Made by a program: the position numbers and the translations under genes. From the sequence record OR544955: a stretch of DNA of 64,000 nt. The stretch is one strand, 5' to 3'. This DNA is from Escherichia phage vB_EcoP_EP32B. Positions 18,957 through 28,257 of the stretch are shown here, piece after piece (position 1 is the first letter of the stretch; every line of letters begins with the position of its first letter). Under the pieces are notes generated by a model. That model searched no databases. It saw only the letters and a list, made by a program, of their open reading frames with translations, and was not told where the DNA came from.

Positions 18957-19300
18957 CCAAAATGTTGGCTTTAATAGTTGGCTTGGTTTCATTTAGCGCT
19001 CTTGCTAATACTACATATACTGATGTAACGGAGTATACAAACAGAACGGCGTCTGATTATTGTGGTAAAAGTCAAGAGTGTAAAGTAGATTTTTCACAAA
19101 AATTGTTATATGCGTATAAAGACGGAGAAAAAGATGGGGCGTCTAGTAGGTTCAAGGCGTCTACCTTAATTAAAAGATACTATAAAAAATGGCAAATATT
19201 AGAATGCTCGGTGGCGGAACCTAAAGATAAGGCAGCATGCAATTCTATGGTGGACCGTCTAGTTGACTCTTATAATAGAGGACTTGCAGCAAGTGATTAA
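18953..19300 (+). CDS. secreted Cys-containing protein (115 aa)
   Basis: signal peptide MTKMLALIVGLVSFSALA. Confidence 0.55.
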   Translation: MTKMLALIVGLVSFSALANTTYTDVTEYTNRTASDYCGKSQECKVDFSQKLLYAYKDGEKDGASSRFKASTLIKRYYKKWQILECSVAEPKDKAACNSMVDRLVDSYNRGLAASD

Positions 19301-19760
19301 AAACTATATCAAGGGCGATATTGTCGCCCTGTTTTCTAAAGGTAATAATATTGCTCATGGGTGTAATTGTTTTCATACAATGGGCGCTGGTGTGGCAGGA
19401 CAATTAGCAAAGGCTTATCCAAAAATTTTAGAAGCCGATAAACTTCAAACCGAATTCGGAGACGAGTCTAAACTCGGGACTTATTCGGTTTATGAAAAAT
19501 ATTTTAAGACCCATAAAGCTTATTGCTTTAATCTTTATACACAGTTTGAGCCTGGACCTAATTTTGAGTACTATGCTTTAATGAATTGTATAATAGAATT
19601 AAATGAATTCGGAAAGAATAAGATAACAAAGCCTGTAATTTATATGCCAAGAATTGGTGCAGGTATCGGTGGCGGAAACTGGGATGTCATCGAAGAGATT
19701 TTAGACACATATTCCACTAAACTAGAAATTGTGATTGTTGATTGGGAACCATTATTATGA
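19293..19760 (+). CDS. macro domain protein (ADP-ribose binding/processing)
   Basis: NCFHTMGAGVAGQLAKAY and PRIGAGIGGGNWD resemble the two glycine-rich macro-domain motifs; start uncertain (GTG 19293 or TTG 19263). Confidence 0.6.
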   Translation: MIKNYIKGDIVALFSKGNNIAHGCNCFHTMGAGVAGQLAKAYPKILEADKLQTEFGDESKLGTYSVYEKYFKTHKAYCFNLYTQFEPGPNFEYYALMNCIIELNEFGKNKITKPVIYMPRIGAGIGGGNWDVIEEILDTYSTKLEIVIVDWEPLL

Positions 19761-22431: not shown

Positions 22432-22905
22432 ATGATTATCAATGAAAACTCTTGGCACTTTAAAATTTATGCCGCGTTTAATAGTACATGGAATCGCCCG
22501 AAAACGTTGTGTGCTTATTTTTGGAAAACGTTAATCCCGGTATTGGCTGTTTCAATTATTGGATTTGCGATTTTAGCAGCAGTCGTAATCATTGGCCAGG
22601 AAATTTTAACTAAATTCTTTGTTTTTAGTAGTCTATGGACATTAGTTCCGGCCTCAATTGGCGTAGGCATTTTAATGGTAGCAGTCATGGCTTTTATTGC
22701 TACCGGGTTGGTAATTGGTCCGTCTTGGTTGTTAGACAAATATAACGACAGAAAATATTATAAAGAAATCGAGCTCATTGCACAAAACCAAGAACGAATT
22801 AAAAATGGACTTGAACCTATTGAACGTAAGAAATCATTAATAGGTGAATACCTTAAAGCTCGTAAAGAAAAAATCTGTCCTACTCTTGAATATAAGGCTA
22901 AATGA
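22432..22905 (+). CDS. membrane protein (157 aa)
   Basis: three hydrophobic segments followed by a basic C-terminal tail. Confidence 0.6.
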   Translation: MIINENSWHFKIYAAFNSTWNRPKTLCAYFWKTLIPVLAVSIIGFAILAAVVIIGQEILTKFFVFSSLWTLVPASIGVGILMVAVMAFIATGLVIGPSWLLDKYNDRKYYKEIELIAQNQERIKNGLEPIERKKSLIGEYLKARKEKICPTLEYKAK

Positions 22906-23891
22906 TGAAAACAATTATGAAAGGCTACTTTGGTAGCCACCTTTATGGAACGTCTACTCCTGAATCTGACGTCGATTTTAAAGAAATTTATGTCCCTCAT
23001 GCTCGTGATATCTTGACCGGTAACGTTAAAGAACACATGAGCAAGAACACGAATAACACATCTTCTAAGAACACAAAAGACGACGTGGACCATGAGTTGT
23101 ATAGTCTCAAATATTTCTTTAAACTAGCTGCGGATGGTGAAACCGTCGCATTAGATATGCTTCACACTCCACCAAGTTTAGTAGTTAAATCTGATTTGCC
23201 TGATGTATGGAAGTATATTCAAGATAACAGGTCTCGTTTCTATACCACTAACATGAAATCTTATTTAGGGTATGTCCGTAAGCAAGCTTCTAAATATGGT
23301 GTCAAGGGTTCTCGACTGGCTGTTCTTCGTCAAGCCCTTAAACGTTCTAATGAATGGGGACAATACTTTGATAATGGTGCAGTAATTCGTTTATCACATA
23401 TGAAGAATGTTCTGCCTGTAGGTGAATTTGCTTCGTGGGTTGAAACTGAAAACGAGAAAACAGGTAAGCAAACATTCTATAATCTGTTAGACCGTAAATT
23501 CCAAGACACATTAACTAATAAAGAGTTCAATGCCATCCTGGTTAAACTGGAAGAGAACTATGGTGAACGTGCTCGTAAGGCAGAAGCTAACGAAGGTATT
23601 GACTGGAAAGCATTGAGTCATGCATGTCGTGGTGGACTTCAATTATTAGAAATTTACAAAACAGGCGATCTGGTTTACCCACTTCAGGATGCTCCATTTA
23701 TTCTCGATGTTAAGCTTGGTAAACATACGTTTAAAACTGTACAAGAATTCCTAGAAGATATCGTTGACCAAGTTGAACATGCGTCAGAACAAGCTGCCAA
23801 GAACGGTATGCAACAAAAAGTAGATATGAGTTTCTGGGATGACTTCCTTGAACAAGTCTATCTCGAAAATCATAATTCTTACTATAAATAA
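22902..23891 (+). CDS. putative Pol-beta-type nucleotidyltransferase-fold protein
   Basis: N-terminus MKGYFGSHLYGTSTPESDVDFKEIYV fits the GS-x(n)-DxD minimal nucleotidyltransferase signature; 329 aa. Confidence 0.6.
   Translation: MMKTIMKGYFGSHLYGTSTPESDVDFKEIYVPHARDILTGNVKEHMSKNTNNTSSKNTKDDVDHELYSLKYFFKLAADGETVALDMLHTPPSLVVKSDLPDVWKYIQDNRSRFYTTNMKSYLGYVRKQASKYGVKGSRLAVLRQALKRSNEWGQYFDNGAVIRLSHMKNVLPVGEFASWVETENEKTGKQTFYNLLDRKFQDTLTNKEFNAILVKLEENYGERARKAEANEGIDWKALSHACRGGLQLLEIYKTGDLVYPLQDAPFILDVKLGKHTFKTVQEFLEDIVDQVEHASEQAAKNGMQQKVDMSFWDDFLEQVYLENHNSYYK
23884..23891 (+). promoter_or_regulatory. late promoter TATAAATA
   Basis: exact TATAAATA about 32 bp before ATG 23923. Confidence 0.4.
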
Positions 23892-23922: not shown

Positions 23923-24204
23923 ATGAAAAAATTAGTAATTGGTTTATTCGCAGTAATGATGGCATTCTCTGTTGGTGCTACCACGGGTGCTGCTGGCGGT
24001 AGTGCAGGAGCTGGTGGTAACCAGTCTTCTGGGCCTTCTAATGGTTCGGTAAATGCATCACATTCTCAGGGTATTGAGAACATTAGATCAAGCTATATTA
24101 ATAGCACGGCCGGACAAGCAACTGAAGCATGGTCAAAGGGCCGAGTAGTTACTCGCTCCGTATTCTGTGATATGCCTAATTATGTTGCTAAGTGCGATAA
24201 GTAA
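23923..24204 (+). CDS. secreted Gly/Ser-rich protein (93 aa)
   Basis: signal peptide MKKLVIGLFAVMMAFSVGA, low-complexity Gly-rich region, two Cys near C-terminus. Confidence 0.6.
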   Translation: MKKLVIGLFAVMMAFSVGATTGAAGGSAGAGGNQSSGPSNGSVNASHSQGIENIRSSYINSTAGQATEAWSKGRVVTRSVFCDMPNYVAKCDK

Positions 24205-24207
24205 ATG

Positions 24208-24232
24208 TGGGGACCTTCGGGTCCCTTTAGGG
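24208..24232 (+). terminator. UUCG-tetraloop hairpin terminator
   Basis: GGGGACC-TTCG-GGTCCC followed by TTT. Confidence 0.55.
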
Positions 24233-24256
24233 GGTCAAAATATTTTTAAAAAGTAG

Positions 24257-26377: not shown

Positions 26378-27373
26378 ATGAGCATTACATCTGATGCTGT
26401 AAAACATGAAATTAACGGTTTATGTGCTTCACAGATTAAAGTGTGGTTTAAAGACCATAACGATCGCAGAGCACTTAATTATGAGCAAATTGCTATCCAA
26501 GTTCATCAATTACTGACTAGTAAATTTGATTTTCATATGCCGTCTGAAATCTATACTAATCTACCGCGAGCGCTTATTAAAGCGTGTAAAGGTTACGGAA
26601 AATCAATGGCTGATGGAATCTTCAGCGCGCTGAATAAACTTAACGTTCTGTCGATGATTAACTCTAACAACATCCTGCGTAATCTAGGACGTACTGATTT
26701 GTTCGGTCGTGAACAGTGTAAAATGCCTTTGAAATGGATTGTTGCTCATCTTAACGAGAACCAAACACGTTTTATGGCCGTATCAGCACGCTTACAAATG
26801 GGCCTAGATCGTCAGATGAACTTTAAAACTCATCCACGTTATTCAGGTTCAACAGACTTTTATAAATGTGAGCTTCAAAAGGTCGGTGGCAAAACCGTCT
26901 TAGTAGTTCGTGTAACGTTTGAAGGACGACGTCAAGGATATTTTGACCTAATCGGCTCTGGTCTTAAACATTGTGGATTTATTGACGAAGTTGATATCAA
27001 GCGAGACGGCATTGGATACCGTATTGGATATGTTTGTACTCTTAAAGAAGAGATTTCAGGACCAGCACCAGGACTAAAAGACGTTAGATATAAAGACGAG
27101 CTCATTGAAGAAATAAAAGAAGTTGAATATGATATCAACCAAGAAGATGCTCTTAAAGACCTTATTGATGAACTAAACCAAGACGTTATTCCGGTTCAGA
27201 AATTTGAATCAAAACACGCTGAGCAAATCAAATACTTTGAAGCTTTGATTAACGAACTTAATGTAACTATTCAACAAACTGATGATGAAATCTCACGATT
27301 AGCAGGCTTAAACGGTAAAAATAAAACAGAACGAGCTAATCTTATTCAGGTAGTAAAACTTCTTAAGGAATGA
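26378..27373 (+). CDS. hypothetical protein with C-terminal coiled coil (331 aa)
   Basis: preceded by GCTTTAC / GTTATAATG promoter-like pair and GAGG. Confidence 0.6.
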   Translation: MSITSDAVKHEINGLCASQIKVWFKDHNDRRALNYEQIAIQVHQLLTSKFDFHMPSEIYTNLPRALIKACKGYGKSMADGIFSALNKLNVLSMINSNNILRNLGRTDLFGREQCKMPLKWIVAHLNENQTRFMAVSARLQMGLDRQMNFKTHPRYSGSTDFYKCELQKVGGKTVLVVRVTFEGRRQGYFDLIGSGLKHCGFIDEVDIKRDGIGYRIGYVCTLKEEISGPAPGLKDVRYKDELIEEIKEVEYDINQEDALKDLIDELNQDVIPVQKFESKHAEQIKYFEALINELNVTIQQTDDEISRLAGLNGKNKTERANLIQVVKLLKE

Positions 27374-27428: not shown

Positions 27429-28250
27429 ATGGCTTTTATTACACGTAGAGAACTTATCAAAGAATTTACCTCGAACGCATATACTCCAGGACCTAATCCT
27501 ATCCGTATGCCTGTAAAGACTCCTGAAGAGATTGAGGAAATCTGTTCATATTATGGGATTACTTCTCGTAAGTTTACTCAATTTGAATGCGTTACTAACA
27601 CACCCGTTAAAGAGTTCATTAAAAATGGTGAGTTCAGCCGTTTATTAGCCAAACAGAAACTTCGTAATTTTTGTATTGGCGGTGAAGGACAATATTTCGC
27701 TAAGCAGTTTCGGAATAACCTTAACAATCTGATGGCCATTGCTTCTCGTATTCGTCCTCAAGCAATTAATATGAAACATTTGAAATATACTTACGATAAG
27801 TTGGAAATCATGGTTATCAGTGAGAATGAGTTCACTCTCACGTATAAACCTAAGAATGATAACGTTGCTCGTGTATTCCACCAAGCGTTGGAAGTGTTAG
27901 GTGATAATATTCACCAGATTAAAGCAATTTATTCTCGTGAGCTTAATATTATCAACCCTATCAAGAATAAGGGCCATATCGCTATCCAGGCTCGTGTATC
28001 TATTGGTAAAAAGGTTCCTGCGCCATGGTGGCACAAAGACTCCGAATATTATCAAAATCTTAAAAAGGAAAATGCACTAATGACCTTCTTCCGGCCGAAG
28101 ATTACCATTACAATCAAATCAAGGCCACTATGGACCAACTGTCTGTTGAACTTGACAAAGCACAAGCTAAGCTTCGTGATGCTCAAAGTGTTGTAACGAA
28201 TCTCCAGTTGCAGTACTCTAAACTTTTTAACGCAATGAATGCATTAAAAT
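27429..28250 (+). CDS. hypothetical protein, apparently frameshifted near its 3-prime end
   Basis: 255-codon ORF 27429..28196 ends in an implausible hydrophobic tail while the +2 frame encodes a coiled-coil C-terminus MDQLSVELDKAQAKLRDAQSVV...NALKS ending about 28250. Confidence 0.5.
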
Positions 28251-28257
28251 CATAAAT

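Follow-up and report, generated by a model that had tools for sequence, protein, structure and literature searches.

Viral counter-defence by RNA repair was first exemplified by the Pnkp-Rnl1 pathway of phage T4, and RloC-type nucleases, which remove a nucleotide, have been proposed to defeat this pathway. RloC excises the wobble nucleotide (PMC2610378, PMC3458546), and the nucleotidyltransferase RlaP has been predicted to replace nucleotides lost to RloC-type nucleases before ligation, with a distribution that follows RNA ligases in jumbo phages (PMC7824862). Two Pseudomonas enzymes, PfRlaP and PaRlaP, put one or two nucleoside or deoxynucleoside monophosphates (NMPs or dNMPs) on an RNA 3'-OH, prefer a cleaved-tRNA mimic, work best with Mn2+, and modify neither DNA nor E. 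coli proteins (10.64898/2025.12.29.696909). Furthermore, RlaP raises the aminoacylation of repaired tRNA that was previously short of one nucleotide, and its crystal structure comprises a nucleotidyltransferase domain and a helical domain (10.64898/2025.12.29.696909). In this preprint of December 2025, T4 NrdC.11 is placed without assigned function in a separate cluster (cluster 5) of the sequence similarity network, PfRlaP and PaRlaP being in cluster 1a (10.64898/2025.12.29.696909). Here, we analyzed the open reading frame (ORF) at 22902..23891 on the plus strand of a 64-kb stretch of Escherichia phage vB_EcoP_EP32B (record OR544955; 64,000 nucleotides, called the window below), which on sequence and synteny is the counterpart of T4 nrdC.11.

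The ORF opens with an ATG and encodes 329 amino acids. A sequence-only reading of the window had claimed an N-terminal G-S...D-x-D nucleotidyltransferase signature for it, and both the ORF as placed and the signature proved to be real. The protein matches the Pfam family RlaP (PF10127) with an E value of 7.7e-13 and 49.1 bits (gathering cutoff, 23), and phrog_388 ("nucleotidyltransferase") from end to end with an E value of 2.6e-126; PF10127 is also precomputed in all close homologues. These Pfam and phrog_388 scores exclude a chance match. Membership in the RlaP family and in the nrdC.11 orthologous group is secure. Homologues were present in 1542 phage records, and a family search of a representative library clustered at 50% identity returned 3214 clusters, of which 742 had E<=1e-30; almost all of the 3214 comprise 310 to 350 amino acids and align end to end.

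In the region of the ORF, the DNA shows 98% identity to Mosigvirus phages, e.g., ST0 and AV112, and the window belongs to a T4-like Mosigvirus. Its gene order is vs.1, tk.4 (macro domain), tk, rI, ..., the 22902-23891 ORF, nrdC.10 (AAA ATPase), ..., nrdC, gene 49, with the plus strand corresponding to the direction of the T4 early genes. The order tk, rI, ..., nrdC.11, nrdC.10, ..., nrdC, gene 49 is common to the window, T4, and ST0, so that the ORF sits in the tk-rI-nrdC early region just where T4 has nrdC.11, upstream of nrdC.10. T4 NrdC.11 (NP_049709, 336 amino acids) is 78% identical to the window protein over the full length (336 columns) and has the same catalytic and C-terminal motifs. 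Because of this identity and the synteny, we assign the ORF as the Mosigvirus orthologue of T4 nrdC.11; T4 identity, PF10127, phrog_388, and nrdC.10 synteny all place its product among the RlaP-family Pol-beta nucleotidyltransferases.

Databases and the literature already cover the gene together with its family assignment and predicted role. The RefSeq product name of NP_049709 is nucleotidyltransferase, and a COG3541 nucleotidyltransferase match of nrdC.11 was recorded as early as 2006 (PMC1524935). Many GenBank and UniRef entries of the exact window protein are labelled "thioredoxin," and some records use the name nrdC.11; the "thioredoxin" label appears to be an annotation error that spread from the nrdC prefix of the gene name. 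The start codon shares bases with the stop of the upstream ORF (ATGA, 22902-22905), and most database entries begin at an alternative ATG, at 22905 (328 amino acids), so the true start may be either 22902 or 22905.

Active site and domain organization of NrdC.11-type proteins

The N-terminal nucleotidyltransferase core with its first helices (residues 1 to 145; 22902..23336, plus strand) is delimited by the AlphaFold2 model, the Pfam match, and about 90% identity to T4, and has the element order b1-a-b2-a-b3-b4-a-a-b5-a. It contains the metal- and nucleoside triphosphate (NTP)-binding signature FGSHLYGTSTPESDVDF, read directly from the sequence (residues 10 to 26; 22929..22979), with G11-S12 at 22932-22937 and D23-V-D25 at 22968-22976. 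Among 146 diverse representatives with 35 to 56% identity, G11 is present in 146 and S12, D23, and D25 are each present in 145. An hDh motif, V62-D63-H64 (23085..23093), follows, and beta strand 63-68 of the model starts at its Asp, D63 (23088-23090). Position 63 is acidic in all 146 representatives (D in 141, E in 5) and matches the Asp of the PfRlaP motif DEL-D-VSGW, which is marked as catalytic in Fig. S3 of the preprint (10.64898/2025.12.29.696909). D63 is therefore the probable third catalytic carboxylate; E65 was rejected for this position, since in the wider alignment it is present in only 105 of the 146. The [GS], DhD, and hDh motifs with three Asp residues, which define RlaP in the same figure, are hence all found in the window protein.

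AlphaFold2, run on an alignment of the window protein with 72 homologues, gave a model with a mean predicted local distance difference test score (pLDDT) of 85.8 and a predicted template modelling score (pTM) of 0.74. Residues 1 to 100 form a b-a-b-a-b-b-a-a-b core of the Pol-beta type, followed by helices, a three-stranded beta element (residues 177 to 201), and five helices up to the C terminus. In a Foldseek search against the PDB, the top neighbours were nucleotidyltransferases only (KNTase/ANT(4'), 3c18, Hailong HalB, and MNT), at weak scores (E of about 7e-3, template modelling [TM] score of about 0.3), and a structural search of BFVD returned numerous phage and giant-virus nucleotidyltransferases. 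A sequence search of the PDB found no relative, and the PfRlaP structure was absent from the matches in the PDB copy searched. Fold recognition, the check proposed together with the signature, thus gave a nucleotidyltransferase fold with Pol-beta nucleotidyltransferases as its structural neighbours. With PF10127 above its cutoff and near-invariant catalytic residues, it supports the nucleotidyltransferase reading, and the gene is predicted to encode a stand-alone, catalytically competent enzyme that belongs to the Pol-beta superfamily.

The sequence-only reading had also described the C-terminal two thirds as uncharacterized. This holds as far as the Pfam alignment is concerned, which spans only residues 7 to 152 (profile positions 23 to 148 of 249), but not for the protein as a whole, as the entire unit of 310 to 350 amino acids is conserved and its distal part has near-invariant residues of its own: Y132, R223, D234, K236, H240, R243, P260, and K271 stand out in the 146 representatives. 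The C-terminal helical domain (residues 216 to 329; 23547..23888, plus strand) is defined by the model helices and these invariant residues. Its helix 235-254 (23604-23663) carries K236-x3-H240-x2-R243, with the near-invariant D234 adjoining.

Between the core and this domain lies a fast-evolving, clade-specific insert (residues 146 to 215; 23337..23546, plus strand), consisting of a short helix and the beta element 177-201. Here, identity to T4 drops to 43%, compared with about 90% in the flanks, and across the family the segment has the lowest conservation and the most gaps. Relative to T4, its nonsynonymous substitution rate (dN) is about 8-fold higher, and the ratio of dN to the synonymous rate (dS) is about 0.3 versus 0.03 to 0.08; these ratios are rough because dS is close to saturation. 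The insert could be a substrate-recognition or host-interaction surface shaped by an arms race, or a segment under relaxed constraint.

The window protein resembles bacterial RlaP in its PF10127 match, in the [GS], DhD, and hDh motifs, and in the predicted succession of an N-terminal nucleotidyltransferase domain and a C-terminal helical domain. Both types also share the helix spacing K-x3-[H/Y]-x2-R, and the secondary-structure order of the NrdC.11 type recurs in the canonical RlaP module of a modelled bacterial fusion protein (see below). In contrast, the NrdC.11 type is about 65 residues longer because of the variable alpha+beta insert, which coincides with the hypervariable segment. The fusion model shows a single additional alpha+3-beta insert ahead of the K/H/R helix in the NrdC.11-type half, and this insert is missing from the canonical module. 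The two-domain architecture, a nucleotidyltransferase fold followed by an all-helical C-terminal region, is predicted by AlphaFold2, whereas sequence similarity of the C-terminal domain to RlaP is not significant. An hhalign comparison of the C-terminal halves of the two types gave an E value of 0.4, and along its best path the canonical K-x3-Y-x2-R helix falls opposite K236-x3-H240-x2-R243. Homology of the C-terminal domains was therefore not accepted, the agreement being limited to this spacing and the order of elements. Judged by these comparisons, NrdC.11-type proteins are a deeply diverged clade of the RlaP family.

NrdC.11-type genes beside RNA-repair genes

We analyzed the neighbourhoods of NrdC.11-type genes in 48 loci from bacteria and metagenome-assembled genomes found with the family profile. 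A canonical RlaP lies directly downstream, as in alphaproteobacteria, or is fused in frame, as in Desulfovibrio, Synergistaceae, and others, at 27 of the 48 loci; the bacterial loci L085-L128 are covered, and examples of pairing or fusion are L095:6004-7757, L113:5911-7809, and L134:8001-15598. The partner genes are of the characterized type, being 33% identical to PfRlaP along their entire length (E=1e-40). Fusions of the two types are widespread, forming dozens of clusters of 600 to 660 amino acids, and the catalytic motifs are complete in both halves. An AlphaFold2 model of a 633-amino-acid bacterial fusion (pLDDT 88.6, pTM 0.50) showed the same order of elements in both halves. A fixed pseudo-heterodimer of the fused modules was considered and rejected, as packing between them is not confident at this pTM. 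We found no description of the pairing of NrdC.11-type and canonical RlaP genes in the literature covered, which was partial and did not include Burroughs and Aravind 2016.

Other RNA-repair genes are also found at these loci. A CCA-type enzyme is encoded upstream of the NrdC.11-type gene at 6 of the 48, and RtcB is encoded nearby at 4; it is adjacent in L099 and L101. Campylobacterota encode a CCA-like enzyme, the NrdC.11-like protein, and RtcB in this order, with canonical RlaP missing. One fusion gene is followed by genes for an AAA_33 kinase and Thg1 in an island of the Desulfovibrio type (L134-136), next to RtcR-RtcA-RtcB.

Phages carry the NrdC.11 type alone, and none of 82 viral loci had a canonical RlaP within 6 kb. 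A six-frame hmmsearch of the window with both RlaP profiles likewise detected no second nucleotidyltransferase or canonical RlaP partner (best E=0.44). RNA-ligase genes are located a few kilobases from the NrdC.11-type gene in three phage contigs (L063, L078, and L141). Association with RNA-repair genes is hence found in the NrdC.11-type clade elsewhere and not within the window. ST0, the closest reference genome, encodes Rnl1, Pnkp, and Rnl2.

Predicted role in RNA repair and alternatives

From the bacterial gene context and by transfer from a distant paralogue, we consider it probable that the protein adds nucleotides to RNA ends, most likely those of tRNA, in phage RNA repair or counter-defence. 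The fold, the G11-S12, D23-x-D25, and D63 set, the conserved helical C-terminal domain, and the RNA-repair neighbourhoods in bacteria are shown by the analysis. As for the mechanism, the three Asp residues would hold two metal ions, probably Mn2+ as in bacterial RlaP, and the NTP would occupy the cleft that separates the core from the C-terminal domain (K236/H240/R243). A broken RNA, most probably a tRNA, would then receive one or two NMPs at its 3'-OH by template-independent addition. In an infected cell, a host anticodon nuclease of the RloC type would cut a tRNA and remove a nucleotide, phage Pnkp would heal the ends, NrdC.11 would restore the lost nucleotide or nucleotides on the 5' half, and Rnl1 would seal the break. 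Deletions from nrdC.11 to mobD.3 leave T4 viable (PMC9825161); loss of the gene is tolerated in laboratory hosts, which fits a counter-defence function needed only under certain conditions.

Several observations weigh against this role. The assayed enzymes, PfRlaP and PaRlaP, are of the canonical type and can barely be aligned with NrdC.11: BLASTP of the window protein against PfRlaP aligns just the 30 residues of the G-S...D-x-D stretch (E=0.015), and profile-profile alignment to 18 canonical RlaPs extends over no more than 56 columns at the N terminus (E=4.9e-4, probability 32%). Furthermore, the phage gene is unlinked to pseT, rnlA, and rnlB, the Rnl1, Pnkp, and Rnl2 genes of ST0 lying 87 to 115 kb from nrdC.11, and the 64-kb window has no gene for an RNA ligase, Pnkp, RtcB, or a CCA enzyme. 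A Pfam scan of the two neighbours on either side at diverse phage loci found nothing recurrent (HD three times, PolyA_pol once). Finally, at the 27 bacterial loci the NrdC.11 type stands beside, or is fused to, a canonical RlaP, and both enzymes keep an intact active site. This co-occurrence and fusion argues that the two types, which in bacteria do not substitute for each other, are not redundant and may catalyze different steps. A tentative proposal, to which we give rather limited weight, is that the NrdC.11 type serves RNA-repair cassettes as a second nucleotidyltransferase whose function differs from that of the canonical RlaP beside it, often near a CCA-type enzyme, and that in T4-like phages it is the missing third enzyme that acts with Pnkp and Rnl1 to reverse RloC-type cuts. 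Its distinction could possibly lie in nucleotide specificity, in a different RNA end, or in recognition via the fast-evolving insert.

As the chief alternative, the same chemistry might act not at anticodon-loop breaks ahead of ligation but at the acceptor 3' end of tRNA, where the protein, together with a CCA-adding enzyme, would rebuild nucleotides upstream of or within CCA after attack by an exonuclease or toxin. Class II CCA-adding enzymes belong to the same superfamily and perform template-independent addition to tRNA 3' ends, and in phage Slicko01 and the phage contigs L141/L142 and L143 the NrdC.11-like gene has a gene of this type (PolyA_pol, with or without HD) immediately upstream. 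The pair was located at L003:4652-6888 (Slicko01), L141:6748-9002, L143:6716-9008, L137:4815-8984, and L099:464-4302; in L137, only an IS605/TnpB element intervenes, and two further OrfB copies are present in this 17-kb locus. It recurs in one phage clade (Slicko01-like), in Campylobacterota, and in Synergistaceae. Action at the acceptor end would also suit Rhodobacter phage RcXuper, whose NrdC.11-like gene is inside an array of about 20 tRNA genes, and the Desulfovibrio-type island, since Thg1 is a tRNA 5'-end repair polymerase. We nevertheless regard it as unlikely. The phage cases next to a CCA-type gene are not independent because they largely come from one clade, T4-like phages including that of the window have no CCA enzyme beside nrdC.11, and 3'-end healing could be all that the CCA-like enzyme, through its HD domain, provides in repair operons. 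ARAGORN found no tRNA gene across the window, and tRNA clusters near the NrdC.11-type gene were seen at 3 of 49 loci scanned, so linkage to tRNA genes was rejected as a general feature. The window protein itself was not assigned to the class II CCA-adding enzymes or poly(A) polymerases: it has no match to PF01743 (PolyA_pol head), to PF12627, or to an RNA-binding domain, and differs in C-terminal architecture, the two Pfam domains occurring in separate neighbour genes of other genomes.

Two further explanations draw on a weak similarity at the level of the fold, as KNTase/ANT(4'), 3c18, MNT antitoxins, and Hailong HalB, the best neighbours among solved structures, also combine a nucleotidyltransferase core with a helical second domain. 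One is nucleotidylation, such as AMPylation, of a protein or small molecule, i.e., an MNT-like action on a host defence toxin or a KNTase/ANT(4')-like action on an antibiotic-like compound. This appears improbable, as the structural matches reflect a shared superfamily fold, neither NCBIfam (including its ANT models) nor PADLOC gave a match, bacterial RlaPs left E. coli proteins unlabelled, and the bacterial neighbours of the clade are RNA-repair genes. For the same reasons of missing NCBIfam match and weak Foldseek similarity, the protein was not assigned to ANT(4')/KNTase. Nor does it qualify as the MNT antitoxin of a HEPN-MNT pair, which has about 100 to 150 amino acids and is encoded beside a HEPN gene, whereas the window protein has 329 amino acids with a C-terminal domain and no adjacent HEPN gene. 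The other explanation, synthesis of free oligonucleotides or signalling nucleotides as by HalB (oligo-dA) or CD-NTases, e.g., as a decoy against host defence, seems very improbable: no relation to the HalB or CD-NTase families was found at the sequence level, PADLOC gave no match, the gene context is one of RNA repair and not of signalling, and bacterial RlaP stops after one or two additions on an RNA primer. Addition of nucleotides to broken RNA ends remains the reading that we favour.

Surrounding genes and implications

In T4, the HNH homing endonuclease gene mobD overlaps the start of nrdC.11, whereas the window has a 157-amino-acid ORF (22432-22905) there instead, whose stop overlaps the nrdC.11 start. 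It encodes a predicted membrane protein with hydrophobic stretches (annotated "membrane protein" in ST0) and has no match in Pfam or PADLOC. Between nrdC.11 and nrdC.10, within 23923-24236, lies a 93-amino-acid ORF with a signal-peptide-like N terminus and a Gly/Ala/Ser-rich stretch, which has no counterpart at this place in the T4 annotation and is followed by a terminator-like hairpin (24220-24236). Promoter and terminator scans gave counts no higher than the shuffled expectation.

Further downstream, a string that resembles the signature, IGSGLKHCGFIDEVDI, occurs at residue 192 of a 331-amino-acid ORF (26378-27373). This ORF was rejected as a second nucleotidyltransferase because it matches neither Pfam nor the RlaP profiles. 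The sequence-only reading had titled its entry on the 22902-23891 ORF "Second, stronger," and this ORF may be the first candidate so implied; if so, that candidate is without support. Downstream, the DUF7235 paralogue (27429-28255, nrdC.4/.5-like) lacks 133 bp compared with ST0 gp023 (320 amino acids), a deletion that shifts the frame so that the ORF stops at 28196 after 255 amino acids and leaves the former C terminus as a separate 41-amino-acid ORF (28130-28255). It is probably a pseudogene in the window phage.

A macro-domain gene, the tk.4 homologue, is located at 19263-19760, 3 kb upstream of nrdC.11, and in Slicko01 a macro-domain gene (L003:8035-8523) lies 1.1 kb downstream of the NrdC.11-like gene. 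Macro domains act on ADP-ribose phosphate by-products of RNA 2'-phosphate removal, and a loose link of these genes to RNA repair is possible. In the tRNA array of RcXuper, ARAGORN predicted a transfer-messenger RNA-like gene (L002:2273-2695) with the tag peptide ANENFAPMEMRLAA before the stop, 3.3 kb upstream of the NrdC.11-like gene; the record carries no annotation of it.

The pairing and fusion of both types in bacteria warns against carrying RlaP biochemistry over to the phage enzyme without a direct assay. If NrdC.11 does restore the nucleotide lost to RloC-type cleavage, this would close the loop of the arms race around RloC and would explain what this gene, which is conserved among over 1500 sequenced phages, does.

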